Source of the DNA: Candidatus Yanofskybacteria bacterium
GTDB lineage: Bacteria > Patescibacteriota > Minisyncoccia > 2-02-FULL-40-12 > GWA2-44-9
Direction of reading: 5' to 3'
Assembly: GCA_003514055.1 (NCBI GenBank)
Contig: DOSG01000008.1
Span: 45,895 to 109,894 of the forward strand
DNA: 64,000 nt
Below, one piece after another: positions 9,609 to 47,476 of this stretch. The position numbers and the translations under genes were made by a program. The notes under the pieces were generated by a model. It did not search any database, was not told the DNA's origin, and saw only the letters and a list, made by a program, of their open reading frames with translations. Positions within the stretch are counted from its first letter, which is position 1. Every line of letters begins with the position of its first letter.

Positions 9609-9616
9609 AATACTAC

Positions 9617-9641
9617 AAAAAGCGGCGAAACGCCGCTTTGT
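9617..9641 (-). terminator. rho-independent terminator hairpin
   Basis: AAAA-AGCGGCG-AAA-CGCCGCT-TTG. Lies 10 nt downstream of the 9648 gene stop. Confidence 0.5.
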
Positions 9642-9647
9642 TGATAT

Positions 9648-9968
9648 TTATGCCCGAGAAGTTTCTGCGATATAGCTCTGCTCGAAAGCAAACCACATCT
9701 CTCTCCACTCTCCGTTAAGACGGATCCTAGAAAATACGAGCATATCGGGCGGATCACCACGCCCCTGACAATTAAAATCAGACTTACTGTAAATTTTCTC
9801 ATGTTCCATTTTATAAACAGTACAACCGATTTCATTGCCGTAAAATTGATACCCAAGTTGCTCTGGGTTCTTAGCAATCTGAACGGCCGATATTAGGTCT
9901 TCAGTCATGAGAACTGGATCAGATACTTCTCCATGGCCAGTATCGTGCGTTGCGATGACAATGAACAT
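9648..9968 (-). CDS. hypothetical protein (106 aa)
   Basis: Strong SD (GGGGAGG) 5 nt upstream of the ATG at 9968; no family recognised. Confidence 0.55.
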   Translation of the reverse strand: MFIVIATHDTGHGEVSDPVLMTEDLISAVQIAKNPEQLGYQFYGNEIGCTVYKMEHEKIYSKSDFNCQGRGDPPDMLVFSRIRLNGEWREMWFAFEQSYIAETSRA

Positions 9969-10054
9969 GTAAGCCTCCCCTGCTTAGAAACTGAGCCGAT
10001 AATCTCACAAATCCCGGCATGCGTCAATTAACTCAAGGTGTTTAAAAATAGCGG

Positions 10055-10098
10055 GAGGAACTTTCGAGAGGCTCTCGCAGGAACGAAAGTTTTCCCCC
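10055..10098. repeat. hairpin sharing the GAGAGGCTCTCG core with the 17446 element (partial copy / terminator of the GT4 gene)
   Basis: AACTTTCG-AGAGGCTCTCGCAGGAA-CGAAAGTT followed by TTTCCCCC. Confidence 0.4.
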
Positions 10099-10102
10099 TA
10101 TT

Positions 10103-11167
10103 TTACTCGATTATCTCCAATATAGCATTTCTAAAATTTTCGAGAGAGAATCTCTTGGCTGATTCTTTGATAAGATTTGGGCTATATTTGTGATAATTAT
10201 CATTGAGCCTTCTAATGCCATCTGCCAAAGCTTCTGGTATCGGATCGTCAAAAAATTCTCCAGTAACCCCCTCTTCGATGATCTCCATGGCACCGCCCCT
10301 ACGTAGTGCCACTACTGGCTTGCCATAAGCCATAGCCTCAACCGGAGCAATCCCGAAATCTTCTTCTTGCGGCATAATGAATGCCCGACAATTCTTGTAA
10401 TAGCCAGCCAAAAACTCATCAGAAACGAATCCCAGCAAATCAACATTATCGCCAGCCATCCTTTTTAATCTCCTCTTGGTCGGCCCATCGCCGATTATGA
10501 TCAAGGGTAATTTTAGCTTATTAAAAGTATCAATAACCAAGGCAATATTTTTATAGTCATAAAGCCTCGAAACAATCAGATAATAATTCTCAATAGTCGG
10601 CACAAAATCTGATTCTATGTTGTAGGTATTCACTGGTGGGAATATAATCTTTGAATCTCTGTGGTAGTATTTTTTTATCCTATCTTGAACATTCTTCGAT
10701 ATGGCGATAAATTCATCGACTCTATCCGAGGCCAAGCGATCCCATATTCTTAAATAGTGTCTGGCGACTTTGCTAATTAATCCCGATCTTTCGTAGTCTG
10801 AATTTCTATCCCATAAAAATCTTGTTGGGCTATAGCAATAACAAATATGCCTAGTTTTTGGTTTTAGAACTAATCCCTTTGAGAAAATTACAGATGATGA
10901 GATTACTAGGTCAAATTCAGACAAATCAAATGACTCGATAATGCTAGGCATTATAAATGCTAAATATGGGTAAGCGGTCATCACGAAGGGAAGTCTCTGC
11001 AATCTGCTAGCTACAATTTTAGTATTAGGCAAATATCTACTAGTCAGCTTTTTCTTGTGAAATAAGGTATAAATCGGCGCATTGGGAAATATTTCATGCA
11101 AAGCAATAAGGGTGCGTTCGGCACCCCCCAAATTTAGAACCCAATCATGTACCAGCGCTATTTTCAT
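10103..11167 (-). CDS. glycosyltransferase family 1 (GT4)
   Basis: MKIALVHDW...GGAERT N-terminus and GIAPVEAMAYGKPVV C-terminal motif. Confidence 0.85.
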   Translation of the reverse strand: MKIALVHDWVLNLGGAERTLIALHEIFPNAPIYTLFHKKKLTSRYLPNTKIVASRLQRLPFVMTAYPYLAFIMPSIIESFDLSEFDLVISSSVIFSKGLVLKPKTRHICYCYSPTRFLWDRNSDYERSGLISKVARHYLRIWDRLASDRVDEFIAISKNVQDRIKKYYHRDSKIIFPPVNTYNIESDFVPTIENYYLIVSRLYDYKNIALVIDTFNKLKLPLIIIGDGPTKRRLKRMAGDNVDLLGFVSDEFLAGYYKNCRAFIMPQEEDFGIAPVEAMAYGKPVVALRRGGAMEIIEEGVTGEFFDDPIPEALADGIRRLNDNYHKYSPNLIKESAKRFSLENFRNAILEIIE

Positions 11168-11195
11168 TATATTAACTTATGGATGAGGCAAAGCG

Positions 11196-12197
11196 CTATC
11201 TCTTAGCTATCACATTTCTCTTGTAAACATCCAAATTCTCAAGGACTATACCCGTACCACGGGCGACACAAAATAAAGGATCGTCAGCTATCGACGCCGG
11301 TACGCCTGTAACTCGAGTGATGAGCGTGCTTATATTCTTTAACAAGGCTCCTCCACCGGAGACGATGATCCCCCGATCCATGATATCTGAACATAGCTCT
11401 GGAGGCGTAACTTCTAACACGCTTTTGATAATTTGAATTATTTCACGCAATTGTTCAGACATGGCGTCGGTTATCTCGTTAGAGCTTAACTCCACCGTTT
11501 TAGGATAGCCTGTAGCCAAGTCTCTACCTTTTATGTTTATCTTTTCTTCGACGGCCTGCTTAGCAGCGCTTCCGATGTTTATCTTGATCAACTCGGCTGT
11601 CCTTTCGCCGATAGCCAAGCCGTGCTTTTTCTTGATAAATTCAACAATAGCCGCGTCCAATTTATTGCCAGCCACTCTCACTGAAGAGCAACTCACGATG
11701 CCGCCCAACGAAATAACTGCCAATTCCGTGGTACCACCGCCAATATTTAAAATCATGTTGCCCGAAGGGTTGTTTATAGGGATCTTGGCACCAATCGCGG
11801 CTAGCACTGGTTCTTTGACCAAGTATACGGCCTTCGCACCAGCATTTAGAGCCGATTCGATAACAGCTCTCTTCTCGGTTGAAGTTATGCCAGCCGGTAC
11901 TGATATCAACACTTCTGGCTTAACAAAATTCATAAATCCACCAGCTTTTTTTATGAAATATCTTAGCATCGCCGTAGTAATTCTATAATCGGCGATAGCT
12001 CCGTCGACAAGCGGTTTTGAAACTATAATACTATCCGGCGTTCGGCCGATCATTTCTTTTGCCAAATTCCCCACGGCTATAACCTTATTATCCAAAACCG
12101 AAATCGCCACCACCGACGGTTCATTTATGACGATACCCTTCTTGGGCAAGAAAACTACTGTATTAGTTGTACCCAGGTCTATACCAATCTTTTTCAT
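11196..12197 (-). CDS. mreB: rod-shape determining actin homolog MreB
   Basis: KKIGIDLGTTNTVV phosphate-1 motif; length and overall similarity to MreB. Confidence 0.95.
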   Translation of the reverse strand: MKKIGIDLGTTNTVVFLPKKGIVINEPSVVAISVLDNKVIAVGNLAKEMIGRTPDSIIVSKPLVDGAIADYRITTAMLRYFIKKAGGFMNFVKPEVLISVPAGITSTEKRAVIESALNAGAKAVYLVKEPVLAAIGAKIPINNPSGNMILNIGGGTTELAVISLGGIVSCSSVRVAGNKLDAAIVEFIKKKHGLAIGERTAELIKINIGSAAKQAVEEKINIKGRDLATGYPKTVELSSNEITDAMSEQLREIIQIIKSVLEVTPPELCSDIMDRGIIVSGGGALLKNISTLITRVTGVPASIADDPLFCVARGTGIVLENLDVYKRNVIAKR

Positions 12198-12345
12198 CTT
12201 ATATAAGGAATCTACCCGTAAATCGTGGAATTAGCAATTTTCGAATAATCCGACGTTAATCTGCGGAGGGAGTTAGGAAAAATTGATAATAAGCGATCAT
12301 TTAAGCGCCTAAATTATACTAACTAATTATTCACAATACAAACAT

Positions 12346-12374
12346 TTGACAGATCTTTCTAAAGATTGATAATT
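12346..12374 (+). promoter_or_regulatory. candidate promoter TTGACA-17-ATAATT with an inverted repeat in the spacer
   Basis: TTGACA 12346-12351; ATAATT 12369-12374; the spacer AGATCTTTCTAAAGATTGA is palindromic (possible operator). Confidence 0.35.
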
Positions 12375-12399
12375 ACTACCTTTCTGATAATATGTATTC

Positions 12400-13239
12400 A
12401 TGACTAAGAGGCAAAAAAGATTATTATTCTATTGTGCAGTACTATTCTTCCTTTTCGGTAGCTATGTAGCCATTATGTACGCTCAAGGCTATAAATACGA
12501 TTTTGCAGAAAACAATTTTTTCAAAACTGGGACGTTCCACTTAAAAGTTAACGAAGACGCCGAAGTATTCGTAGATGGAGAATATATGGGCACCACTTCC
12601 TTTCTTGGAACATCGTTCAGTCACGAAAGATTACTACCAGGAACCTACCAGACTAAAGTTCAAAAGAATGATTACTCCACTTGGCAGAAAAACATACAAG
12701 TTGAAGAAGGCTTAGTTACTGAATTTACTTCAATCATGCTTCTACCTCAAGCTGGGGTAGAGAAAGATAAACTTCTAGAGGAGATCAGCCTAATATTAGA
12801 TGGCCCAAGTCCATCACCGACCCCCAGTGGATCAAAGGCTAGCCAGCCTAAGGGCTCACCCAGCCCCTCCCCAATAAAAACCCCGGAACTACCAAGCCTC
12901 CCATTCGTCATACAAAATAGAATACTATACCAGGCTAAGACCGATGACGATCAGATAACATTAGTCCCCGTAGCAGACGAAGCAACTGGATTTAAAATAT
13001 CTCCCGACAAAAATAAAATAGCTTGGTGGAATAAAGGTGAATTGTGGTTATATTGGGTAAACAAAACTAATTATCAGCCCATACACATCAAAGGAGATAT
13101 CGAATTGATCAAGACATTCGACGCGCCCATAAGTAAGCTTGATTGGTTTAGGGATAGTGAGCATATTGTTGTAGAGTCCATTGGGTTTAAGGTCATCGAG
13201 ATTGACTCAAGAGGCGGATTGAATATTATCTCCATCTAA
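12400..13239 (+). CDS. PEGA-domain membrane-anchored protein with a Pro/Ser-rich linker and C-terminal beta-propeller-like region
   Basis: N-terminal TM; FHLKVNEDAEVFVDGEYMGTT resembles a PEGA domain; SPSPTPSGS linker. Confidence 0.55.
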   Translation: MTKRQKRLLFYCAVLFFLFGSYVAIMYAQGYKYDFAENNFFKTGTFHLKVNEDAEVFVDGEYMGTTSFLGTSFSHERLLPGTYQTKVQKNDYSTWQKNIQVEEGLVTEFTSIMLLPQAGVEKDKLLEEISLILDGPSPSPTPSGSKASQPKGSPSPSPIKTPELPSLPFVIQNRILYQAKTDDDQITLVPVADEATGFKISPDKNKIAWWNKGELWLYWVNKTNYQPIHIKGDIELIKTFDAPISKLDWFRDSEHIVVESIGFKVIEIDSRGGLNIISI

Positions 13240-13255
13240 GAGATTTACTAAAGAT

Positions 13256-13284
13256 AAAAAAGCCCCGCGTATGCGGGGTTTTTG
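13256..13284. terminator. bidirectional rho-independent terminator between convergent genes
   Basis: AAAAAAG-CCCCGCGTATGCGGGG-TTTTT. Confidence 0.7.
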
Positions 13285-13287
13285 CGT

Positions 13288-14031
13288 TTAATAGCGCCGT
13301 TCGAGATCGAACCAGAAGTAGAAACCGGAGTCAGGCGGATGGTAGTGGCCTGGGATATTGCAGAAACCTCTGATCCAGACCCAGCATTGACACCATTCAT
13401 CCCATTCCCAGTGTCCTGGAACGTGCATGTATCTATCTCCCCAGAGGTCATGGAATGGCCTCCAGAAGAAGTAGTACTTATTCGCTCCGAACCACCAGCC
13501 GGAGGAATACTCTCCACGCCCGTAATCACCGAACTGCGGATGTGGCAGCGGCGTAGGTCGAGTCCTTGGAATGGCATAGCGCGGAAGATCCCTCAGAGGG
13601 AATCGCTGATGCGTTCCTTGGCCACCACGAGGCAACTCGTTCGAATAGATGCCAGGCGGCCGCATCATCGCGCCCGGCCCGCGACCCATGCCTTGACCTT
13701 GTCCACGGCCTTGCTGGTCACCACGACCCATGCCTTGACCTTGACCACGTTGAGTACCTGGATCTTGCCGTGGCCGACTCCGCTGAGGATCACGGCCCAT
13801 GCCTTGACCCGAGCCTGAAGGTGGCCCCTGCCGTTGTGGCGGTTGCTGTCTTGGTTCGGCCCGAGGCGGTGGAGCCTGACGTGGCGGCGGCTGTTGCCGT
13901 GGCCTTTCTTGAGCTTGCGGGTCTCGAGTTGATCTTGGCTTGGCCTTTTCCCTTTCCTGGCTAGCCAAGAGTGCCGCCGATCCAAAGATCAGCAGCAGTA
14001 GAATCGAAAGAACTGTTCGTTTGCGGCGCAT
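13288..14031 (-). CDS. secreted low-complexity Pro/Gln/Arg/Gly-rich protein with GQGMGRG repeats and a Trp/Phe/Tyr-rich C-terminal domain
   Basis: Signal peptide MRRKRTVLSILLLLIFGSAALLA; GC-rich codons; three alternative-frame ORFs in the track are high-GC artefacts. Confidence 0.55.
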   Translation of the reverse strand: MRRKRTVLSILLLLIFGSAALLASQEREKAKPRSTRDPQAQERPRQQPPPRQAPPPRAEPRQQPPQRQGPPSGSGQGMGRDPQRSRPRQDPGTQRGQGQGMGRGDQQGRGQGQGMGRGPGAMMRPPGIYSNELPRGGQGTHQRFPLRDLPRYAIPRTRPTPLPHPQFGDYGRGEYSSGWWFGANKYYFFWRPFHDLWGDRYMHVPGHWEWDEWCQCWVWIRGFCNIPGHYHPPDSGFYFWFDLERRY

Positions 14032-14105
14032 AAGTCACCTCCATGATGTAGCGCTCGACTCATTAACTTTACGCCATCATTAGATACTGTCAAGCTGGCG
14101 AACTA

Positions 14106-14145
14106 AAATCAAAACCCCTCGTTATTTCGAGGGGTTTTGATTTTA
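14106..14145 (-). terminator. rho-independent terminator of the ribosomal operon (16-bp stem)
   Basis: AAATCAAAACCCCTCG-TTATTT-CGAGGGGTTTTGATTT; 42 nt downstream of the rpsI stop. Confidence 0.75.
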
Positions 14146-23808: not shown

Positions 23809-25509
23809 TTATTGTAATACGATCCTAATACGTCTGATACCAGCCGAAACGGCCTCCTCTTTTGCGATTTTAATGTGGCCTATCTCGCCGGTGCGTCTAA
23901 CATGCGGACCACCGCAAACTTCTTTCGAAAAATAATCACCAGGATCGCCAATCGTATAGACTGTCACCATCTCTGGATATTTAAGCTTAAAAAATGCTAA
24001 CGCCCCAGAATCAATCGCATCCTGATATCTCATATCTTCAAAAGATACAGCCAGGTCATCGGATATAGCTTGATTAATTGTGTCCTCGACTTGCCTTATC
24101 TCTTCGGATGTCATCTTACGATCAAAACTAAAATCAAACCTCAACCTTTCGGCATTAATATCAGAGCCAGATTGATGGACATCATTGCCCAAGACTTTTC
24201 TCAAGGCAGATTGGAGTAAATGCGTGGTAGTATGATATTTGATTTTGATAACTAATTCCTCCTCGTTAGCGGCGGTTAAGTCACCCTTGGCAATGCCGTG
24301 GCCACCAAACTTTTTCTCCGCACCCGCCCGCGATAGTTCCTGATGCTTTTTAAATTCTTCGTCAAAGTTATCGCGATTCAAGCTCTTGGCCTTATCGCCA
24401 CCAACTTCTTTGATAATTTCGTAGGGTAACCCAAAACTTTCATAAAGATGAAAGGCATTAACCGCATTCAAGTCATCAATCTTATCGAGCTCTCTCATGC
24501 CTCGCTCTAAAGTGTTATCGAACTTATCTTTCTCCGTCGAAAATTCACTGATGATCAAGTTAATATCCAATTCCGGATAATAACCGTCGTATATTTCCTG
24601 AACCATTCTAAATAAATTCGAAATTATCTGCTTCTCAATCTTAAACTGAAAAGCATAAACGATTAGACGGCGCATTATTCTTCTTAATACATATCCGGCT
24701 TCTTTATTGGAAGGCCTGAAGCCATCTGACAACATAAACGCTACGGCACGAGCATGATCAGTAACGATTCTTTTCTTTCTTTCTTCCATACTAGGAATCA
24801 ATTCCATGATCGGCCGGAGTAAATCAGTATCAAATATAGTCGAGACGCCTTGGCTTACCATAACGAGCCTTTCTAGGCCCATACCCGTATCGATACCCGG
24901 CGTTTTGAGCGACTCTAGCTTCTTGTCCGCGTACTGATAATATTGATTGAAAACGATATTCCAGACTTCTAGCCCGTTTACATATATTTCCGTGGTTGGG
25001 CCACAAGGCCCTTCGGCGCCAGTCGGTCCCCAGAAATTATCTTTCCTGCCAAATCTCTTAACCACAATGTTTGGATCTAGTTCTTTCCAATATTTTTCAG
25101 ATTCGTCATCAGCCGGTACGCCATCACTACCTTCAAATACAGAGACATAATCGATCTTTAGTCCCATTTCCTTAACGATAAAGTCGTAGCCATATTGAAT
25201 GGCTTCTTTTTTAAAATATCCGCCAAATGAAAAGTTTCCCAGCATCTCAAAAAATGTCAGATGAGATTCATCGCCGACTTCATCGATGTCTGAAGTACGT
25301 ACACATTTTTGAATAGTAACCGTATTTAAAGAACCAAAATCTTTGGTTGCATCGGCCTGACCAGTATAATAATATTTAAATTGCTGCATGCCAGCCGTAG
25401 TAAACAACACCGACGGATCAGTTGGCATAAGTGAGGCCGAGGGCACAAGTTTGTGTCCCCTCTCTTGGAAAAATTTTATAAACTTGTCTCTTATTTCTTT
25501 GTGAGTCAT
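23809..25509 (-). CDS. alaS: alanine--tRNA ligase, short form (catalytic plus editing domains; no C-Ala domain)
   Basis: N-terminal class II core FTTAGMQQFK...; editing-domain HTTTHLL...CGGPH motifs; 566 aa versus about 870 aa in typical bacteria. Confidence 0.85.
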   Translation of the reverse strand: MTHKEIRDKFIKFFQERGHKLVPSASLMPTDPSVLFTTAGMQQFKYYYTGQADATKDFGSLNTVTIQKCVRTSDIDEVGDESHLTFFEMLGNFSFGGYFKKEAIQYGYDFIVKEMGLKIDYVSVFEGSDGVPADDESEKYWKELDPNIVVKRFGRKDNFWGPTGAEGPCGPTTEIYVNGLEVWNIVFNQYYQYADKKLESLKTPGIDTGMGLERLVMVSQGVSTIFDTDLLRPIMELIPSMEERKKRIVTDHARAVAFMLSDGFRPSNKEAGYVLRRIMRRLIVYAFQFKIEKQIISNLFRMVQEIYDGYYPELDINLIISEFSTEKDKFDNTLERGMRELDKIDDLNAVNAFHLYESFGLPYEIIKEVGGDKAKSLNRDNFDEEFKKHQELSRAGAEKKFGGHGIAKGDLTAANEEELVIKIKYHTTTHLLQSALRKVLGNDVHQSGSDINAERLRFDFSFDRKMTSEEIRQVEDTINQAISDDLAVSFEDMRYQDAIDSGALAFFKLKYPEMVTVYTIGDPGDYFSKEVCGGPHVRRTGEIGHIKIAKEEAVSAGIRRIRIVLQ

Positions 25510-25563
25510 GTCTACATTAATTTATCAGTATTAGCCAACCTTAGCAATAAATATGCTCGGGCG

Positions 25564-26850
25564 TTATCTCAAGGAGAACTTCTCAAATATGATATTTGAA
25601 CCTCTTAATCCGGCCGCCTTGAGTCCCGATACTAATGACTCAATCATTGGTATCGGGCCGCAGATATAAACCGTCCTTTCTTTATAGTCTTGAACTAATG
25701 CCTTGATTTTCTCAGGATCAAGTTGCCCCATCTTTTGTGATAAAAATTTAATTAGTCTCAGATTCTTGTATTCTGCAGCCAATAGATCAACCTCTTTCTC
25801 TAATACGATATTGCCTTCCTGGCGATTGCTATATATCAAGGCCACGTCCATATTATCTTTGATCATCTCTTCGGCCACGGCCTTAACCGGAGTAATGCCA
25901 ACTCCACCAGCAATTAAAAGAATCTTGCGATTTCCAGCTCTAGCAGTCGTAAAAACACCATTTGGACCATCAATAATGACTTTAGTACCAACTTTTAGCT
26001 CTCTAATTTTATTTGAATAATCACCTAGATTTTTAACGGTTATTCTTAAAAATTTGTCATTATGAATACTCGAAAACGAATACGGATGAGCTTCATACCA
26101 GAACCCTTCCTGAAGAAATCTGAATATCGCAAACTGTCCACCTTTAAACTCAAATCGCTTGAGATCTTTGCCTTGAATATATATGGAATGGGACTCCTCG
26201 GTATCTTTTTCTACTTTTTGGATTTCAAAACTATGTCTCCAAAAATAATAAATTGGCCTAGCGAATCTATACAAAATCAAATTACCAAAGGCAAATACAT
26301 ATAACACCCACCAAAAAACTACGAATAAACCGTTATCCCTAAAATCTCCGCCGAGTTCTAATTGATGCCCAAAAGCGAGGAGGATAGCTACGTAGAGTAG
26401 TAAATGCAGATAATACCAGATCTCATATTTTAATTTTTCTAACAATATTGGGATTAATATTCCAACAGCAATGATTATAATAGCCGCTATCGTTCCATTT
26501 AAAACGTCATCGCCGCCATTCAATCTAATGAAAGTTGCTACAAATCCAGAATCTCCAGACTTAGCTACGGTCAGCAAGATTGGGTGGGCTAAGAGCATGA
26601 CAAGAGTCCCAACTCCATTCCAATGATGGAAGCGAGCTAGTTTATCCATGCCAAAGATCTTTTCCAGCCAACCAGTTCGGCCAATAAGTACCAGTTGCAA
26701 CAACAACGAATAGACTAGGACTAAACCAGCCAGCCGGCCCATGGCGAGAGAAATATTGGAATCCATTAAAATCCAAGAATTCAGTGACCAGAAATAAACT
26801 ATCAGAACTAAGCCAATTAGTAGCAGCAGATAAGAAAATGTTTTATTCAT
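25564..26850 (-). CDS. ferric-reductase-like transmembrane heme domain fused to an FAD/NAD(P)-binding oxidoreductase domain (NOX/FRE family)
   Basis: Paired His in TM helices (HHWNG...LAHP; YYLHLLL...GHQL); HPYSFSS FAD motif; GGVGITP NAD motif. Confidence 0.75.
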   Translation of the reverse strand: MNKTFSYLLLLIGLVLIVYFWSLNSWILMDSNISLAMGRLAGLVLVYSLLLQLVLIGRTGWLEKIFGMDKLARFHHWNGVGTLVMLLAHPILLTVAKSGDSGFVATFIRLNGGDDVLNGTIAAIIIIAVGILIPILLEKLKYEIWYYLHLLLYVAILLAFGHQLELGGDFRDNGLFVVFWWVLYVFAFGNLILYRFARPIYYFWRHSFEIQKVEKDTEESHSIYIQGKDLKRFEFKGGQFAIFRFLQEGFWYEAHPYSFSSIHNDKFLRITVKNLGDYSNKIRELKVGTKVIIDGPNGVFTTARAGNRKILLIAGGVGITPVKAVAEEMIKDNMDVALIYSNRQEGNIVLEKEVDLLAAEYKNLRLIKFLSQKMGQLDPEKIKALVQDYKERTVYICGPIPMIESLVSGLKAAGLRGSNIIFEKFSLR

Positions 26851-26900
26851 TGCTTCTTGATTATGATGATAATTTATCAGTTATCACTGTTTTTTACAAT

Positions 26901-26927
26901 AAAAAAAGCGACACCTATGGTGTCGCG
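26901..26927 (-). terminator. rho-independent terminator overlapping the stop codon of the 26915 gene
   Basis: AAAAAAA-GCGACACC-TAT-GGTGTCGC. Confidence 0.6.
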
Positions 26928-27259
26928 GATTCAGTAATATCTCCTTCGGATATATCTTGCTCAGGGCTAACCACCGATTGGCCGACTCTCCCCGCCTTTA
27001 TCTTCATCAGAAAATCAATGCGTTCAGTACGCCAAGTATCGGGAAAATGCTTTCTTTCCAAAAACAAAACGTACGCCGTCAAAGAATTCTTCTTATCGGT
27101 CAGAAGTTGAACTTCCCTGGACAATCGTTCGTTGTCCTTAATTATACGCCTGAACTCCCTATAATTTATCCAGAACTTTTTCATCTCTCGAAGCCTCCTC
27201 CGAATAAATAAAAAAGCTCCAAACAGAACTGTTTCAGTTACCACAGTAACCTCCCACAT
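26915..27259 (-). CDS. hypothetical protein (114 aa)
   Basis: ORF track; N-terminal hydrophobic segment. Confidence 0.45.
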   Translation of the reverse strand: MWEVTVVTETVLFGAFLFIRRRLREMKKFWINYREFRRIIKDNERLSREVQLLTDKKNSLTAYVLFLERKHFPDTWRTERIDFLMKIKAGRVGQSVVSPEQDISEGDITESATP

Positions 27260-27307
27260 GAAAGAACCGAAGTGCTTGGTTTATTTTACACGTACAATTA
27301 GATTGTG

Positions 27308-27673
27308 TCAACAAACAAGCCTTGAGAACCCCCACAAATGCCACATTACTACAATTAATGAGATGGCGGTTAATGCCAGAAAAGCCAACCTAGCATGTCT
27401 TGACTCTCCTTTAGTAGGTAATCTCTCTTCGGCCACGCCATATATGAATAAGGCGCCGATGAGAGCAACAAGTTTTAGTAATATCATCGCCGGCAAGACG
27501 CCAATCTTTTGCATTAACAGCTTCAGAAAAGGATTCAATTCTGGGATGCCTATGCTTAAATAGAAAAACGTCCAGGCGAAATCGGCTATATTGGCTAGAA
27601 TGAACAAGATTAAGACTAGCCTTAATTTCATCCAAACCTCCATTGTCAAAGATTGTGTAATAATATTAATCAT
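27308..27673 (-). CDS. small membrane protein
   Basis: Four TM helices. Confidence 0.4.
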   Translation of the reverse strand: MINIITQSLTMEVWMKLRLVLILFILANIADFAWTFFYLSIGIPELNPFLKLLMQKIGVLPAMILLKLVALIGALFIYGVAEERLPTKGESRHARLAFLALTAISLIVVMWHLWGFSRLVC

Positions 27674-27732
27674 ATCGAATCAAGTCAAATAGACGCCGCT
27701 TGCTAGAGAAACAAAAACGGGTAGCTTATCAG

Positions 27733-28053
27733 CTACCCGTGAATCTCTAGCCATAACTTTATTCCGCCAATCACGACCGCACAAGAGAAGTATATAATCC
27801 CAAAGGCAAGTAGCTCTGAGTTAGTCAGATAAGCCAACTCAGAAAAGGTTATCGCCAGACAGATCATGAGTATGCCCAGAATAAAGATAGGTCCCTGTCT
27901 ACCCGCCTTTACTAGTTCATAAATCAAGACTATTGGCGATAGTAGGATTGAGAATACGTTCCACAGCCAACCAGTCAAAAAGAAAGCCACATTCGTCATA
28001 CGTGCCCTATTCTTCTGAGTTATCGTCAGAGGAATATTCTTCGGCAAGTCCAT
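27733..28053 (-). CDS. small membrane protein
   Basis: Three TM helices. Confidence 0.4.
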   Translation of the reverse strand: MDLPKNIPLTITQKNRARMTNVAFFLTGWLWNVFSILLSPIVLIYELVKAGRQGPIFILGILMICLAITFSELAYLTNSELLAFGIIYFSCAVVIGGIKLWLEIHG

Positions 28054-28357
28054 TCTGTATTGCGATTATCAAATTGGTCTTACCCATTTGCTCACAGTAC
28101 TGCTGCGGAGTCAGGCCCCCGAGCAAATCGCTTGGTTCAACCCAAAACTCCCACATATCTCTGGCGGCGATCGAACCAGCCAGAGCGATACGAATTACTT
28201 CCGGTATCGCCGAATTCAGTGGCATGATTTTTGCCATACATACTCCATGTTTGAGAACTGCCAACATTATACAATCGTGCCATTTTTTGTCAAAGACTAC
28301 GCTTGACAGTCGCTGGTTGGACATGCTATAATATATGAATAAGTCTGGTTCGTTCAC
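28007..28357 (-). CDS. hypothetical protein with an acidic C-terminus
   Basis: ORF track; overlaps the downstream gene by 47 nt. Confidence 0.3.
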   Translation of the reverse strand: MNEPDLFIYYSMSNQRLSSVVFDKKWHDCIMLAVLKHGVCMAKIMPLNSAIPEVIRIALAGSIAARDMWEFWVEPSDLLGGLTPQQYCEQMGKTNLIIAIQNGLAEEYSSDDNSEE

Positions 28358-28387
28358 AACCCAAGAAGGCAGCTATGCCACGAGCTT

Positions 28388-28894
28388 ATGCTCAAAAATA
28401 GCAGAGGAAAAATGAAAACTCTTCTGGCGATCATCTTCACGCTCCTCTTCATCGCCTGGGGCGTCGCAATGACCTTCAACTCGATCATGTTCAATCGAGG
28501 GTGTGGAGGCTACCTCAAACGGGCCGCCGACGCCAACACGACCAAGCTGGCGACCGAGAACCTCGAGATCGCGGTCAAGTACGCCAAGGACAATGGGCTG
28601 ACCTCCGGCTACACGTCGATCGTGTATCGGACTCCAGACGAAGACGTGGGCTTCTGGTACGACAACCTCAAGGAGTCACTGAAAGAGCTCCAGTCGACCA
28701 GCCCTGACGCCTCACGACTCGAGAAGACGAACGCTCTCATGAAGCTCAGAGAGACCCTTCTGGATTCCGGTCAGAGCACCAGCGTCACGGCTCCTGCCGG
28801 CATTAGCCGATACCCCCACAACGGCTTCTTGGCTCTGTGGGGATGGCTCTCGTTCATTCTGGCGATCATCTTCTGGCTCGGGGCTACCGTGTAG
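28388..28894 (+). CDS. hypothetical membrane protein encoded by a compositionally foreign GC-rich gene
   Basis: N- and C-terminal TM helices; codons dominated by G/C in third position, unlike its neighbours. Confidence 0.55.
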   Translation: MLKNSRGKMKTLLAIIFTLLFIAWGVAMTFNSIMFNRGCGGYLKRAADANTTKLATENLEIAVKYAKDNGLTSGYTSIVYRTPDEDVGFWYDNLKESLKELQSTSPDASRLEKTNALMKLRETLLDSGQSTSVTAPAGISRYPHNGFLALWGWLSFILAIIFWLGATV

Positions 28895-28912
28895 TAGCTA
28901 CTCGATCACCCT

Positions 28913-28958
28913 CCCTGGCGAAGCAAGCAGACAGCTGCTCTTCGCCAGGGCTTTTTTT
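28913..28958 (+). terminator. rho-independent terminator
   Basis: CCCTGGCGAAG-loop-CTTCGCCAGGG-CTTTTTTT. Confidence 0.7.
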
Positions 28959-31900
28959 ATTCCATCATTTTACGTAGCGCACAATATTCGCAGTCTTTTT
29001 CTTTGCATCCCTTATCCCAAAAATCCAGATTCATTATTTCTTGAGATGTTTTAATGACTAATTCTTTAAGTTCTACGACCTCATCGGACGTGACATAGAA
29101 ACTTTCTTTCTTATATCTCCCCTTCTCGTCCGGCTCTATGAAATCAATGTCACCCGATATCATTTTAAATTTCTTGCCTTCAGCATAATTATTCAATAAC
29201 AAATTGTAGAATACCAGCTGTCTTTTTATATCACCATTAGATGTTTGAGTAGTACCCTCAATTTCGCCACGAGTTTTCTGCCTACCAGTTTTATAATCAA
29301 CCACGTTCACCTCTCCCGAGTCATTCAGTATCTCAATTTTATCTATCTTACCAGTAATCCTAACGTCCGCGGCAACGACTATCCCTGGTATGTTGAATTC
29401 ATTCAAAAGATTAGCCCTCCAGTGACCAACGTAATTATCGTAATAACCAGAAAGCGATTTCTCTCCTTTCTGAAGCACTTCTTCAAAATCACTCTCCTTA
29501 AGGGGTTCTCTCTGTAAATATGTGACAAACTTACTCAATAGCATCTCTTTATTAGCTTCGCCTTCCTTGATTTTATCGAAGAAATCTTTGAGCGCACCGT
29601 GAATAGCTGTGCCATACATTTGATGCTTATCTTTGGCTTTTGGTATGCGTAACAGATTAGTATAGAAATACTGCCACGGACATCTTAGATAGTTGTTTAA
29701 GCCCGTAACTGATAACCCATTCTTAGTGAATAAGTCTTTTATGAATTCTTTGTCTTTTATACTTGTTCCAGATTTCACTTTTGGCGTAAACATAATTGTT
29801 CTGTCTCTTTCAAATCCATCTTCATACTCATCGGCAACGACGGTTTCTATGAGATCGGATTTAATCTCCTGGATAAATTGAGATGGTATCTGCTGCTTAC
29901 CGGAAAGTGCTTCCTGGGCATATGTAATTGTCACCAATTTCTTAGCTCGAGTTATGGCCACATAAAATAATCTCCTCTCGTCATCATTTCCATCATCATC
30001 TGCAAGATCCTTATCCTTACAAAGGGCGCCCCTGAGGGGCGCCCTTTGTAACCCAAGAGAATAGACCGAGGCAGGCAAAGACAACAGGTTAGTTCGCCTC
30101 TTATTACCCCAGTGGCCGTCAAAAGCATTCACTATATATACATATTCGAACTCCTGTCCTTTCGATCTGTGGGCGGTCATGAGTCTTATATTCTTTGTGC
30201 CCGATTGGCCTAAACTCTTTTTAATAAGTAGATTATGTATCTGAAGGGTGTCTATATATTTTATAAAATCGCGTAGATCGTAATCTTTGTGTTTCTCCAA
30301 CAATGACTTGATCTCGTTGAATAATCCATCCAATTTTTGCATCTTCTCAGCTACGTCCTTTTCTTTCATTATGTGAGCTAGAAAGCCAGACTCGTTTATC
30401 ATCAACTCGAAGAATTCCGATAAGCCCTGGTTTTTCTGAATCGTAGCCCACCCCGCTACTTTTTTATAGAAATCATGAATTTTATCGGCTGATTCGAGAT
30501 CAATACGCTCAAGATTCTTCTTATGTTTTACAATATCGTGTACGGGAATCTTTTCTTTGTTTGAATAGTTTATGATTTTGTATACGTCCAGCGGATCAAT
30601 ACCTAGAAAATCAATATGCATAGATTCGAGTATCCTAGCCTGAGATCCGAAATTATCCACCAGGCGCATTATCAGCATAAGCTTCTTAATATCGGGATCA
30701 GACAAAATATCCTGATCAGATTCTATAGCAAAAGGCACGTCAACTCTTTCAAGCATATCCGCAAAAGTAAAAACATCTTTATTGTCACGATACAGGATGG
30801 CAATCTCGGACGGCACAACGCCCTTAGAAATTAAATTCTTTATGCTTTTAGCCACGAAATACGCCTCAACTTTTGGCTTTGAAAAGGATAAAAGCCTTAT
30901 CTTTTCCTCTTCGTATCTCATATTAGCTTGTAGTTGCTTATCTCCGGCCAAGATACTATGGGCCGAATCTAGAATATTTTGAGTTGAGCGATAATTATCT
31001 TCCAAGACAATTAGTCTTGCCTTAGGATACAAATTCTTGAAATATAGAAAATTCTCTATAGATGCACCCTGGAATCTGAATATGGCCTGTTTCTCGTCGC
31101 CAACCACGAATATGTTTGGATTAGGATGGAAATTACAGAGTAGCTCCAGAACCTTATTCTGGGCATTATTTGTATCCTGGTGTTCGTCTACTAGCATGTA
31201 CTGGTGTTGCTCCTGCAATATCAATAAAAGATTCTGATTCTGACTGAGTTCTCGCAGAACCTCCATAATCATATCGCTATAGTCATACATCTTATTCTCA
31301 GCCAACTGCTTCTGATAAAATCCGTAGACCACGGCCAACTCCTTATTTTTTCGAATCTGCTTTTCAATTTTCTGATATTCACCCTTCATCTTACCCTTGT
31401 GTGCACCTTTCTCATGATAAAGATCGTCAATCGATGTAAAGTCTTTCTCCTCTTTCTCTACTAGCAGCTTAAATCCTTCCGGGCTAAGACCTTCGCGCTT
31501 AAGATCGTTTAAAGATTTCAAAATTTCTCGCGTGTAATAAAGCGGATCACCGAATGGCTTGAGATCCTTAAGAGGTAGGCCATCGATGGCTTTTTCGATG
31601 ATATTTATCTGATCAACTTCAGTAATATTCTGCGACCCAATGATTGCCGGAAATTCTTCGGGGTAATTTTTAATCACGTCATTGCAAAAACCATGAAAAG
31701 TACTTATCACCACCGAATATCCTGGAGTGCCAATAATCTCGACTAATCGTCTGCGCATTGAAGATACGCCAGATTCTGTGAATGTAAGCGCTAAAATATT
31801 TTCCGGTTCAGTATCGGTCTTCTTTAGTATATTAGCGATGCGCAAAGTCAAAATCTGGGTCTTGCCAGTTCCGGGTCCAGCCACCACCATCACAGGCCCA

Positions 31901-31983
31901 TCAACCGCATCCACGGCCTCCTTCTGAGCCTTATTGAGTTTTTTATATAGCTCCTCGAACTTCGCCATGATTAGATTATACAT
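28957..31983 (-). CDS. UvrD/PcrA-type SF1 helicase fused to a C-terminal Cas4/AddB-like PD-(D/E)xK nuclease with a four-Cys cluster
   Basis: Walker A MVVAGPGTGKTQ; UvrD motifs through about aa 700; C-terminal YLRCPWQYF ... CKEKDCEYC. Confidence 0.85.
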   Translation of the reverse strand: MYNLIMAKFEELYKKLNKAQKEAVDAVDGPVMVVAGPGTGKTQILTLRIANILKKTDTEPENILALTFTESGVSSMRRRLVEIIGTPGYSVVISTFHGFCNDVIKNYPEEFPAIIGSQNITEVDQINIIEKAIDGLPLKDLKPFGDPLYYTREILKSLNDLKREGLSPEGFKLLVEKEEKDFTSIDDLYHEKGAHKGKMKGEYQKIEKQIRKNKELAVVYGFYQKQLAENKMYDYSDMIMEVLRELSQNQNLLLILQEQHQYMLVDEHQDTNNAQNKVLELLCNFHPNPNIFVVGDEKQAIFRFQGASIENFLYFKNLYPKARLIVLEDNYRSTQNILDSAHSILAGDKQLQANMRYEEEKIRLLSFSKPKVEAYFVAKSIKNLISKGVVPSEIAILYRDNKDVFTFADMLERVDVPFAIESDQDILSDPDIKKLMLIMRLVDNFGSQARILESMHIDFLGIDPLDVYKIINYSNKEKIPVHDIVKHKKNLERIDLESADKIHDFYKKVAGWATIQKNQGLSEFFELMINESGFLAHIMKEKDVAEKMQKLDGLFNEIKSLLEKHKDYDLRDFIKYIDTLQIHNLLIKKSLGQSGTKNIRLMTAHRSKGQEFEYVYIVNAFDGHWGNKRRTNLLSLPASVYSLGLQRAPLRGALCKDKDLADDDGNDDERRLFYVAITRAKKLVTITYAQEALSGKQQIPSQFIQEIKSDLIETVVADEYEDGFERDRTIMFTPKVKSGTSIKDKEFIKDLFTKNGLSVTGLNNYLRCPWQYFYTNLLRIPKAKDKHQMYGTAIHGALKDFFDKIKEGEANKEMLLSKFVTYLQREPLKESDFEEVLQKGEKSLSGYYDNYVGHWRANLLNEFNIPGIVVAADVRITGKIDKIEILNDSGEVNVVDYKTGRQKTRGEIEGTTQTSNGDIKRQLVFYNLLLNNYAEGKKFKMISGDIDFIEPDEKGRYKKESFYVTSDEVVELKELVIKTSQEIMNLDFWDKGCKEKDCEYCALRKMME
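30017..30051. repeat. GC-rich palindromic mini-element, in frame inside the helicase-nuclease CDS
   Basis: TTACAAAGGGCGCCCC-TGA-GGGGCGCCCTTTGTAA. 14-bp perfect stem. Translated as LQRAPLRGALC. Confidence 0.6.
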
Positions 31984-38203: not shown

Positions 38204-38530
38204 TTATATGGTTCTTAAAAATATTCCTATTCTAGCTATAACAACAAATCCTACTCCCCAAATAAGTGGGAGCCAGTAAGGCACACCGAAAAGATGCGCC
38301 TTAGGCCAAATCTGCTGATAACCTAATGTGCGCATACCTATCTCGATAACTACTCCCAATATAACTCCCACAAAATACAAATAAAACTCTCCAGAGTTAT
38401 ATTTAAATAACCATATGAGAACAACCGAAAATATGGCGAATACGGTAAACTGGATTTCGCTCAGCTTATTAATAGACTCCGCAACGAAAAACAAAACAAA
38501 TATAGCTAGGGGTATTAATATTTCTAACAT
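38204..38530 (-). CDS. small membrane protein
   Basis: Three TM helices. Confidence 0.4.
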   Translation of the reverse strand: MLEILIPLAIFVLFFVAESINKLSEIQFTVFAIFSVVLIWLFKYNSGEFYLYFVGVILGVVIEIGMRTLGYQQIWPKAHLFGVPYWLPLIWGVGFVVIARIGIFLRTI

Positions 38531-38666
38531 CTGGGGGGCGCCTGAAGGGAATCGGCTTCGACTCTCGTCGCCTTCCGACGACTCGGTCTAGCCACCACCT
38601 CGTGATCTCGCTCGCCCATTGCTCGCAAGACAACGCTCCGGCGTTCGATTCCAATTTAAATCATTC

Positions 38667-38740
38667 TGGGCGCCTGAAGGGAATCGAACCCTCGTGACCG
38701 CTTCCACAGAGCGGCGTTCTACCATTGAACTACAGGCGCC
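38667..38740 (-). tRNA. tRNA-His (anticodon GTG) with an encoded G-1
   Basis: Manual cloverleaf: G-1 + GCGCCTG acceptor / D stem GTTC-GAAC / anticodon stem CCGCT-AGCGG with loop CTGTGGA / T stem GAGGG-CCCTT with loop TTCGATT. Confidence 0.85.
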
Positions 38741-38766
38741 ATAACAACCCGAAAATTATACCACGA

Positions 38767-44656: not shown

Positions 44657-45940
44657 CTAGCGCGATCCTCCCGAGATGACATATGTGAAATCATCCCCTT
44701 CTCTTCTAACGCCGGCCCTAGCAAAGGGCGTTTCTACGACTCCATCAGGTCCAGCCGATAAACACATTGAATTGTACGGCCACCTGAGCTCATCATCAAA
44801 GAAGAATATACTGTTAACCATGTACCTATTCCCCCAGGGATCTGGGCCGATAGCAGATAGATAAGCTCCTCTCCAGCCCATACCAATCGATGAGCTATAG
44901 CTTAGTCGCATTACATCTGGATATAGATATGCGTTTTCAATTCTGCCTCTCGGCAGATTCTGAACCAAGTGATTTTCCATTATATCAACCACCAGACTAT
45001 TCTCCGATTCATAGGCCCACCCAATCGTCTTGCGCTTCACCAACATCTGTCTCTCAAGCTTACTCTCGACAATAAATGATGACTGACGATCTGAGACGCT
45101 AAATAGCGCCAGATTTCCACAAGCTTCTGGAACTAGAAATATATATCTGGCCTTAGGAGTCTCGACCTGGAACATGAAGGCATTAAGTGACTCTCCGGAC
45201 CACTGAACATTTTTCAGCAGATCGACGGCGCGATCGTTAACTGCTGCCTTTGGACGATACGCCATCCACAGCATTCTTATCCCAGGATTCATTCTACATT
45301 TAACTATGCCACTTTGAGGCAATATTACCTCGCTACAAGACGTCATAGAGCCCTTCACCTCTTTAGCGTTAGAGATCCTACTAATTACAATCTCTGGGGA
45401 ATCAATCTCGGCCTTAACTAATAGCTCGCGGAAATCTGCCGCATGTTTCTCTGCCGCCGATCTCAAATCAATGTCTGATTTGATTTCTGATGTAAATGCG
45501 GTAGCGCCTCCTAAATGCGTCGCATTTATCCAAGTCATATTCGTTGCTACGATTCGTTGAGAGTAGCTGATTGACTCACGAGATGACATTCGCGTGTAGT
45601 TTGCTTCATATGAATATGATCCATAATCAAAGAGCTGAGCACCCAAGCCACGAGTTCTAATGGCGTTACCTTCGCTAACAAGCAGATTCACACGATTGTT
45701 TCTCGAGCATGGGAGACGACCGTCTAATCTAATACATGGACCCGTATCCACCAACATCCTAGACAACGACACTCCAATTGCCTCACAATCTTCTTTAACC
45801 TTTACAAAACGAGCATCTCGGACGAAATCCATGATCGAAGGAGCCAATACACCAGCCAAAAGCATCAATGTAGCCAATATTATGGTCACTTCGACTAGCG
45901 ATAAGCCATGCTTACCATGACGTAAGCGTTTGTATGTCAC
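44657..45940 (-). CDS. large type IV pilin-like protein (prepilin-type N-terminus); true start is GTG at 45940, so the ORF-track 5' extension is spurious
   Basis: GGAGA SD 6 nt before the GTG; leader MTYKRLRHGKHG followed by LSLVEVTIILATLMLLAGVL (class III signal peptide, Glu+5). Confidence 0.65.
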   Translation of the reverse strand: MTYKRLRHGKHGLSLVEVTIILATLMLLAGVLAPSIMDFVRDARFVKVKEDCEAIGVSLSRMLVDTGPCIRLDGRLPCSRNNRVNLLVSEGNAIRTRGLGAQLFDYGSYSYEANYTRMSSRESISYSQRIVATNMTWINATHLGGATAFTSEIKSDIDLRSAAEKHAADFRELLVKAEIDSPEIVISRISNAKEVKGSMTSCSEVILPQSGIVKCRMNPGIRMLWMAYRPKAAVNDRAVDLLKNVQWSGESLNAFMFQVETPKARYIFLVPEACGNLALFSVSDRQSSFIVESKLERQMLVKRKTIGWAYESENSLVVDIMENHLVQNLPRGRIENAYLYPDVMRLSYSSSIGMGWRGAYLSAIGPDPWGNRYMVNSIFFFDDELRWPYNSMCLSAGPDGVVETPFARAGVRREGDDFTYVISGGSR

Positions 45941-46043
45941 AAGGGTCTCCTTTTTTGAACGAACGGAACCTAAGGCTAGTGAACCACTTCGTGATAGCAG
46001 TGTCAATAAAAATAAGAAGGCCCGAGAACGTCTCAAGGCAATC

Positions 46044-46069
46044 AAAAAAGCACGCCCCTTGGGGCGTGC
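46044..46069 (-). terminator. rho-independent terminator
   Basis: AAAAAA-GCACGCCC-CTTG-GGGCGTGC. Confidence 0.6.
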
Positions 46070-47476
46070 CTATGCCGACAGAAGATAGCCGATAACGTCG
46101 GCTACTGTATAAGTATCATCTGGCCCACCCATCAGATGCTCCAAGAAGTTGACGTCATCTCCCAGAGTAGCAATTTCAGGCTCACCAGGGGTGCCTAGAT
46201 CGGCCGTGGCAAGCAAGCCTTGGCAAAGACAAGCCCTGCCTACCGTATCCTCAATCTTCCCGCCTTTGCGGACATACTGATCGACATCTTCAGACGCGCA
46301 AAGATAAATAATCTTTCCATCTTTTTCTACTGGCGTGGCCAAATAACGCAAGGCACAATATCTTGTTCGATTATCATAAACTGCAGAATCAGAAAGAGTT
46401 CCTGGTAATTCGACAACTTTAAATGGGAAGCCCGTTGGAGATACTCTAAAATCAGTTCTAATGCTAAAATTGGTGTCGACTCCAGTAGCTTTCAGGAATC
46501 CTCTTCTTCGAATCTCTCGCCTCAAGCTATCTTTCATACCTGATTGTTGGCTTAGGGCAAATATAGATCCAACTTGTATACCCTTTGCACCAGCCGATAT
46601 CGCCTCGGCTAATCCAGCCGGTGAAGCATATGACCCGCCAATCCAAAATGGTAATCCCAGCTCAACGATTTTCTCAAAATCCACTCTATCTTTTCCGCCA
46701 TACTCTTCGGAGTGCTTTTCTCGCGGCGGAGCATTATGCCCGCCAGCGGTAGGCGTTTCAATAACAAAGCCTTCGATACTCCCCGACGACCTAGTCAACA
46801 TTATCTTAGCCATAAGATTAGAAGAGATAATGGGCAAGAAGACTGGACGCTTTAATGTTCCCAGATCAGCGCCAAAATGCTTCCCGAAGTTGAATAATAT
46901 AGCCTTGTGCCCACCGATAGCATTTGTCACGCTAACCTTATAGATCGCATCCTCGCCGCGAGACAACGCGTCCATGACTCCAGGAATTTGAGTAGGAATC
47001 CCTGCACCCATGGTCACGCAATCAACTCCGGCTATCATAGCACCGGCGAGACTATAAACGTGAGGCATTTGTATTTTCTCAAGATAGTTAATGCTAATCG
47101 GATAATCGTGACCCTCTTTGGCAAGCCAGACAAAAGCGAAACTCGCACACACAAAGAGATTGATAGTTCTCCACGACGGCTTAAAGCTAAGTGGAATTAC
47201 GGTCTTATATTCTGCTCCCTCTGGGATACCACCTTCAACAAAGTAATAATCTACAATATCTTTAACTGCTTCTTGGAATGGAAAGTGGGCCAGAGCCCTT
47301 CGATAGTGCCCGCCAGGATCGCCTTTTTGCAGAATACGAGATAGAATCCTGTCAGCGGCGATACCAGATATAGTGCCAAGGGCCGAGCCCTTAGATACGA
47401 GTGAGACTTCTTTAGCAAGGAAAGGATGGGATATGTAAGCCCCCATGCCTCCTTGAATTATTCGCCAGTCTAGCAT
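46070..47476 (-). CDS. FMN-dependent nitronate monooxygenase / FabK-like TIM-barrel oxidoreductase family protein
   Basis: RIIQGGMGAY N-terminal motif and GGSYASPAGLAEAISAGAKGIQVGSIFA C-terminal motif. Confidence 0.65.
   Translation of the reverse strand: MLDWRIIQGGMGAYISHPFLAKEVSLVSKGSALGTISGIAADRILSRILQKGDPGGHYRRALAHFPFQEAVKDIVDYYFVEGGIPEGAEYKTVIPLSFKPSWRTINLFVCASFAFVWLAKEGHDYPISINYLEKIQMPHVYSLAGAMIAGVDCVTMGAGIPTQIPGVMDALSRGEDAIYKVSVTNAIGGHKAILFNFGKHFGADLGTLKRPVFLPIISSNLMAKIMLTRSSGSIEGFVIETPTAGGHNAPPREKHSEEYGGKDRVDFEKIVELGLPFWIGGSYASPAGLAEAISAGAKGIQVGSIFALSQQSGMKDSLRREIRRRGFLKATGVDTNFSIRTDFRVSPTGFPFKVVELPGTLSDSAVYDNRTRYCALRYLATPVEKDGKIIYLCASEDVDQYVRKGGKIEDTVGRACLCQGLLATADLGTPGEPEIATLGDDVNFLEHLMGGPDDTYTVADVIGYLLSA

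Follow-up and report, generated by a model that had tools for sequence, protein, structure and literature searches.

The window, by which we mean the whole 64-kb stretch of Candidatus Yanofskybacteria DNA that was analysed, contains a short GC-rich gene that converges with and directly abuts a gene for a helicase-nuclease; its place right beside that gene was already given in a preliminary description of the sequence. The features of the locus are as follows.

23809 to 25509: AlaS-like gene, the other border of the slot
25510 to 28956: variable slot between the AlaS-like and helicase-nuclease genes (synteny with the relatives L135 and L145, and Pfam)
27717 to 28237, minus strand: divergent small transcription unit with a 76-aa ORF (28007 to 28237), a 106-aa membrane ORF (27733 to 28053) and a hairpin terminator (27740 to 27717)
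28266 to 28293, minus strand: second perfect sigma-70 consensus promoter (predicted), directed toward the small ORFs on the left; 12 of 12 positions match
28303 to 28332, plus strand: putative sigma-70 consensus promoter of the GC-rich gene (TTGACA, 18-nt spacer, TATAAT, TG before the -10 element); 12 of 12 positions match
28333 to 28411, plus strand: 5' untranslated leader with a GC content of 0.42-0.46 in an 80-bp profile, containing AGAGGA (sequence read directly)
28388 to 28894, plus strand: longest form of the GC-rich ORF, 168 aa from the first ATG
28412 to 28894, plus strand: compositionally foreign core, the coding sequence of a 160-aa protein with a predicted TM / four-helix-bundle / TM arrangement (GC3 0.80)
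28913 to 28958, plus strand: predicted intrinsic terminator from an inverted-repeat and terminator scan, with an 11-bp perfect GC-rich stem (28913-28923 / 28940-28950) followed by a T-run
28957 to 31983, minus strand: backbone neighbour, a UvrD-family helicase fused to a PD-(D/E)XK nuclease (Pfam), convergent with the GC-rich gene

Because the ATG at 28412 is used in the NCBI records of the identical protein and fits the N-termini of the homologs, we take it, rather than the ATG at 28388, as the likely true start. Read from the sequence, AGAGGA (28403-28408) stands just 5' of this codon. No overlapping ORF of at least 50 aa was found on the opposite strand of the gene. The two perfect promoters lie back-to-back within 67 bp (28266-28332) upstream of the gene, and they are the only two copies of TTGACA-N16-18-TATAAT in the 64-kb window, for which chance alone predicts 0.11. 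This segment is thus apparently, as judged from its sequence, a strong bidirectional promoter between the GC-rich gene and the divergent small-ORF unit. At the other end, the perfect 11-bp stem with its T-run agrees with the terminator that the gene had been said to own, and the T-run continues into the stop codon at which the oppositely oriented helicase-nuclease gene ends. A search of positions 27000-29500 returned no Rfam match.

The AlphaFold2 model of the 160-aa protein (pLDDT 90.7, pTM 0.80) contains helices at residues 2-40, 44-60, 79-95, 102-116 and 137-159, and predicts a hairpin in which two TM helices flank a four-helix bundle. The first and last of these helices support the two-TM topology of the preliminary description, which had seen in the gene a small membrane protein of unknown function; likewise, no model in Pfam, NCBIfam, PHROGs or PADLOC matched the protein. 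An alignment of 36 family sequences has 25 invariant columns, and the family motifs, which lie between the hydrophobic N- and C-terminal segments, are GYLKRAADANT, TSGYTS, RTPDEDVGFWY, LEKSNxLMKLRETLLD and VTxPxGISxYPxN. The protein is predicted to expose this conserved bundle outside the membrane between the two TM anchors and to act alone. A sequence-profile search of the PDB yielded no credible match (best E 0.0018, over a single stretch of 50 residues), a permissive Pfam scan of the 36 members gave nothing consistent, and no paper mentioning the protein accessions was found in the literature. At the nucleotide level, the two TM helices have in common a 23-nt direct repeat of 91% identity (28422-28444 and 28857-28879; TTCTGGCGATCATCTTC..., with LAIIF encoded in both), which may have arisen by chance or may record a duplication within the gene.

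Base composition and codon usage

The coding sequence at 28412-28894 and its hairpin terminator together form a sharp composition island of about 540 bp. In the 80-bp profile, the GC-rich stretch runs from the start codon to the end of the terminator, and the 174-bp upstream spacer, with promoter and 5' UTR, has a host-like GC content. The 500-bp bin at 28501-29000 reaches a GC content of 0.57 against a window mean of 0.416, so the GC-rich ORF with its terminator indeed stands out from GC-poorer surroundings, as first described. Over the 168-codon ORF, GC1, GC2 and GC3 are 0.485, 0.438 and 0.781, compared with a mean GC3 of 0.42 for the ORFs of the window.

As a null model, we generated 20,000 synonymous versions of the 160-aa protein by drawing codons according to host usage. 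The GC3 of the actual 160-codon sequence is 0.80, versus an expectation of 0.425 +/- 0.038 (z = 10), and the maximum of the 20,000 draws was 0.585. Because this GC3 is far above what the same amino-acid sequence would give, the skew resides in the codons, as had been proposed from their third positions. The value also lies far beyond the distribution in the window (z of about 10), where 36 long reference genes have GC3 z-scores from -4.5 to +2.5, so the comparison of GC3 that had been suggested as a check leaves the idea of a foreign gene standing. The small ORFs adjoining the gene are host-like (z 0.5-2.0), with z = 1.2 and 2.0 for the divergent 76-aa and 106-aa ORFs. The GC1+2 of the GC-rich gene is likewise raised (z = 1.6), and the dinucleotide signature distance (delta*) of the island is 0.204 compared with 0.095 +/- 0.031, ranking first among 231 equal-sized chunks of the window. 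Ribosomal protein genes of the same window are without GC3 enrichment (S9, 0.384; L13, 0.330); therefore, translational selection in the host does not favour G/C-ending codons.

Other GC-rich spots are present in the window. A second island at 13288-14031 on the minus strand, directly downstream of the S9 gene, has a GC content of 0.585, rising to 0.66 in 200-bp windows. Its product of 247 aa combines a signal-peptide-like N-terminus, a long low-complexity region rich in Q, P, R and G, and a Trp-rich C-terminal domain; it has no Pfam, NCBIfam or PHROG match and only 6 homologs among 5.8 billion proteins. Here the excess is at codon positions 1 and 2 (GC1/GC2 0.665/0.56; GC3 0.528, z = 2.9) and therefore reflects amino-acid composition, unlike that of the GC-rich gene. 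Two minor spikes, both of 0.55-0.57 in 200-bp windows, coincide with tRNA-His (38668-38739, within 38501-38750) and with the junction of the minus-strand ORFs 44657..46045 and 46070..47476 (46051-46300).

The slot beside the helicase-nuclease gene and the distribution of the family

In the window, 3.4 kb separate the AlaS-like gene from the helicase-nuclease gene. This slot holds a ferric-reductase-like gene, ORFs of 114 aa, a DUF5658 protein, 106 aa and 76 aa, and, at the helicase end, the GC-rich gene, and only this last element is compositionally foreign. In the relative L135, the gene order is Obg, helicase, AlaS-like, Dus, a 626-aa gene, IF-1, S13, S11, S4, RpoA, L17, L13 and S9, and the helicase and the AlaS-like gene are only 172 bp apart (13013-13183 of that contig). 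In L145, the order is Obg, helicase, a 217-aa ORF, a response regulator, a 490-aa ORF, a 67-aa ORF, AlaS-like and Dus, and the slot of about 3.1 kb (10983-14125) carries unrelated cargo with a GC content of 0.51-0.58 against 0.46 for the backbone. Comparison with these two relatives thus shows that the space between the helicase and AlaS-like genes is a variable slot whose cargo differs from lineage to lineage. None of the five relatives (L133, L134, L135, L144, L145) has a homolog of the GC-rich gene near the helicase. The search for syntenic orthologs that had been proposed as a check thus found the gene to be non-syntenic in relatives.

These relatives are distant outgroups with helicases 60-66% identical to that of the window, and no true sister species is among them, so the timing is not tightly bracketed and insertion is not strictly polarised against loss in the relatives. 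The closest helicase homologs among 5.8 billion proteins are 66% identical, which indicates that the lineage is thinly sampled, and a scan of metagenome contigs via the helicase retrieved only relatives of 55-59% identity without synteny. Searches of Pfam, PHROGs and PADLOC gave no match for the 76-aa and 106-aa ORFs, and no homologs of them were found beside other members of the family of the GC-rich gene. The ferric-reductase-like gene (25564-26850, minus strand) encodes a NOX/FRE-type protein (Ferric_reduct, FAD_binding_8 and NAD_binding_1) in a streamlined CPR genome; a relative of 28% identity lies in L133, about 5 kb beyond the other side of the helicase and adjoining a cytochrome-b5 gene.

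The family of the 160-aa protein is large. We found 877 homologs at E <= 0.01, the top ones 50-70% identical and the named ones mostly hypothetical proteins of Patescibacteria. An exhaustive profile search of 1.84 billion representatives gave about 958 clusters at 50% identity, 413 of them at E <= 1e-30; the best 150 of the 958 clusters are all 107-254 aa long and match over nearly their full length, without domain fusions. A scan of one genome per species yielded 159 loci with relatives (44-64% identical). The hosts are mainly CPR bacteria and include Bacteroidota, among them Aquimarina isolates and Saprospiraceae, as well as MAGs labelled Clostridia, Gammaproteobacteria, Ignavibacteria and Acidobacteriota. 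Members are also carried by 48 IMG/VR viral contigs, some of which are verified phages, such as a contig with anti-repressor, RecT, SbcC-like and endolysin-like genes (L087) and another with DNA polymerase, NAMPT and PRPP synthetase genes (L091). When all ORFs within 6 kb on either side were compared, no conserved neighbour emerged, the commonest co-occurring cluster being present in 6 of 129 loci. The neighbours on viral contigs are mixed accessory genes (DNA methylases, the Tad8 anti-Thoeris protein, HNH, IS605/TnpB, RecA), and on an 831-kb CPR contig (L132) the family gene is a lone plus-strand gene amid minus-strand housekeeping genes.

On the phage contig L087, the family member is directly downstream of an L-Ala-D-Glu peptidase / endolysin-like gene (9274-10492). 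A membrane protein of a lysis cassette (holin) was considered and rejected: apart from this contig, only 2 of 82 immediate neighbours on viral contigs have cell-wall-hydrolase-type domains (3D, Glyco_hydro_19). We also rejected a known anti-phage defence protein, as the 160-aa protein has no PADLOC match; the GajB-like PADLOC matches of the neighbouring helicase are due to its generic UvrD fold.

Origin of the gene

We consider it likely that the segment 28412-28958 is a recent horizontal acquisition of a single gene, which entered as a self-contained cassette from a GC-rich donor. Such a cassette would consist of a strong sigma-70-type promoter, one coding sequence and an intrinsic terminator, and would have been inserted into the variable slot beside the helicase-nuclease gene of a genome of about 41% GC. 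Its donor would have had roughly 56-63% GC, and the codons of the gene would not yet have drifted to host usage. Recent acquisition had been put forward in the preliminary description. The codon anomaly and the non-syntenic position in relatives uphold the acquisition itself; its recency, which like its direction we infer, holds only in a relative sense, as the gene is fixed and 100% identical in the population.

Across the family, the GC3 of the gene tracks that of its host (113 loci, r = 0.82). The difference between gene and host (dGC3) nevertheless has an SD of 0.123, compared with 0.066 for neighbouring control genes, and its absolute value exceeds 0.15 in 24% of members versus 4% of the controls, with deviations in both directions. 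The family is patchy in distribution and frequently discordant in composition with its hosts. A calibration on 122 loci (GC3 = 1.67 x host GC - 0.25) places the copy in the window at a residual of +0.35, which only one of the 123 copies exceeds. When inverted, the fits would put the GC content of the donor at about 0.62 from GC3 and about 0.56 from GC1+2. In a clade of eight very AT-rich MAGs labelled Clostridia (L017, L029, L031, L033, L035, L046, L075, L080), the gene, located at about 10001-10470 in most, has a GC3 of 0.26-0.41 against 0.11-0.20 for its neighbours, and the copies are 50-80% identical to one another. One recent transfer does not obviously account for this persistent excess.

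The preliminary description had implied a donor from a high-GC phylum, which finds no support in the homologs: the closest ones, 61-70% identical, are on short metagenome contigs, in Patescibacteria MAGs and in MAGs labelled Saccharibacteria. The nearest relative (L136) is 70% identical in amino acids and 72% in nucleotides, and it and the next two (L137, L138) have a GC3 of only 0.51-0.55 on contigs of 39-44% GC. Members with high GC3 (L040, L027, L053) are not closer to the copy in the window, and the donor is therefore taken to be unsampled. Nucleotide BLAST against the fetched loci revealed no donor and no near-identical foreign copy; identity reached about 72% at most along the bulk of the gene and 76% in short stretches. 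Since the family is CPR-centred, phage-carried and unusually transfer-prone, we think it most likely that the gene came from another CPR bacterium or from a phage, and not from a member of a high-GC phylum. Horizontal transfer is frequent in Patescibacteria and 83% of it is intra-phylum (PMC12455944), in better agreement with a donor among the CPR or their phages than with one from a high-GC phylum.

Several observations speak against acquisition. No donor and no near-identical foreign copy came to light, and the closest homolog, at 70% protein and 72% DNA identity, has a GC3 of only 0.51. The composition step falls exactly at the start codon behind a host-like promoter, which also fits selection on the coding region alone. 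Finally, the boundaries of the island have no insertion scars: we found no flanking direct repeats, target-site duplication or att-like repeats there, and no mobility gene.

One could instead suppose that the gene is native and old, and that its GC3 is kept high either by gene-specific selection on the coding region (for very high expression or for the structure or stability of its mRNA) or, in a gene that recombines frequently, by GC-biased gene conversion. The perfect consensus promoter and the position of the composition step would agree with this, as would the nearest relatives, which are 0.05-0.10 GC-richer than their flanks, the GC3 excess throughout the divergent Clostridia-labelled clade, and the slightly positive mean dGC3 of the family (+0.037, Wilcoxon p = 0.006), with a systematic excess in very AT-rich hosts (+0.09). 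The excess of the nearest relatives and of the members in AT-rich hosts hints at some bias intrinsic to the gene. However, in hosts with a GC3 of 0.25-0.55, the class of the window, the family mean is about 0, many members deviate downwards, and members in CPR bacteria of about 40% GC (for example L132, L004 and L008) are largely host-like in GC3, whereas the residual of the copy in the window is close to the largest observed. In addition, the ribosomal protein genes of the same genome lack GC3 enrichment, the GC-rich stretch includes the non-coding terminator, GC1+2 is raised as well, and the gene is missing from the syntenic slot of relatives. On balance, we regard a native origin as improbable.

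The gene might also be a genuine phage moron, left over from a prophage or other mobile element that has since decayed around it. Relatives on 48 viral contigs, in accessory regions near methylases, Tad8 anti-Thoeris, HNH and TnpB genes, are compatible with such a history, and a promoter-terminator cassette of foreign composition is typical of morons. Yet the slot contains no phage or mobility gene, the small neighbouring ORFs lack PHROG matches and are host-like in composition, no att-like or flanking repeats were found, and the nearest tRNA is about 10 kb from the gene rather than adjacent. We give this explanation little credence.

An assembly or binning chimera, in which DNA of a GC-richer organism was joined into a Yanofskybacteria contig, is effectively excluded, even though composition changes abruptly at both ends of the island and a short JGI contig (L081; 1,121 bp, 100% identical to 27859-28979 of the window) stops 21 bp after the terminator: this same contig crosses the left junction, the T-run of the terminator shares bases with the stop-codon region of the helicase gene, and the junctions are identical in at least 25 contigs that were read, on contigs of up to 445 kb. 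The junctions are thus real. The identical protein is present in 62 index blocks, and the contigs read came from JGI, ENA, NCBI and Logan assemblies. Its 90%-identity cluster holds it as P0242 (KKR36842.1 and others, for example in Candidatus Yanofskybacteria bacterium GW2011_GWE2_40_11), listed on 28 contigs, and throughout the assemblies of this population the gene is fixed, with 100% identity. Three contigs considered as sister genomes (L141-L143, including GCA_001795915.1 and GCA_001794795.1) were rejected as such, as 12.5 kb of each match the window with 100% identity. All identical assemblies belong to one clonal Candidatus Yanofskybacteria population and are uninformative on sister species.

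Relation to known systems and possible role

Acquisition of the GC-rich gene would be comparable to the transfers described for Patescibacteria (PMC12455944). It also resembles the atypical-GC3 genes and genomic islets of the Lawrence-Ochman type, with which it shares an aberrant GC3 and dinucleotide signature, a location in a variable slot flanked by conserved housekeeping genes, membership of a patchy family and absence from the syntenic position in relatives. It differs from such islets in comprising one gene of about 0.55 kb, without integrase, tRNA or direct repeat and with no donor found. An integrative island, an IS element and a prophage were each rejected as descriptions of the segment, given that no direct repeats flank it, that the small ORFs beside it gave no PHROG match and that the closest tRNA is about 10 kb away.

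Phage morons of the Hendrix type are autonomous transcription units inserted between genes. The GC-rich gene resembles them in having its own predicted sigma-70-type promoter and factor-independent terminator, a composition unlike that of its neighbours, and relatives in phage accessory regions; in contrast to morons, it resides in a bacterial chromosome between housekeeping genes and not in a phage or prophage.

Among membrane-anchored helical bundles, we rejected a 4HB_MCP or histidine-kinase sensor domain (Tar/Tsr, QseE): there is no Pfam match, and the protein ends a few residues past TM2, without a cytoplasmic signalling domain. Matches to 4HB_MCP-type sensors are no better than those to cytochrome b562, CheA-P1 or designed bundles. 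LemA (PF04011; N-terminal TM helix and helical bundle) is similarly a small bacterial membrane-anchored helical-bundle protein of unknown function, but none of the 36 family members matches it in Pfam at E <= 1, and LemA presumably lacks a C-terminal TM helix, unlike the 160-aa protein.

Our best guess, made with low confidence, is that the protein associates with the envelope, where it would bind some widely conserved component in an accessory or 'moron-like' capacity. For such a solo role at the envelope we rely only on the topology of the protein, its occurrence without partner genes, its presence in phages and the architecture of the cassette. A broader reading, which we find doubtful, is that the family represents an undescribed and widely disseminated accessory protein, spreading as an autonomous, strongly promoted single-gene cassette that is of immediate benefit to any envelope. 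This advantage might, for example, consist in superinfection exclusion or in shielding an envelope component that is universally conserved. Identities of 45-70% extend over the records from CPR, Bacteroidota, Clostridia and Gammaproteobacteria and over those from phages. If this broader reading were true, the recurrent compositional discordance of the family would be the footprint of unusually high inter-phylum transfer that includes the CPR.

The acquisition of the GC-rich gene is in itself an ordinary case of horizontal transfer, and nothing in it challenges current understanding. What it offers is a clean and well-bounded example of a streamlined CPR genome gaining a probably foreign, un-ameliorated gene, in a slot to which foreign cargo comes repeatedly. 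The element of wider interest is the protein family, which is highly conserved, solitary, without models, borne by phages and cells, and host-switching, and which it would be reasonable to study experimentally as a candidate accessory factor of the envelope.
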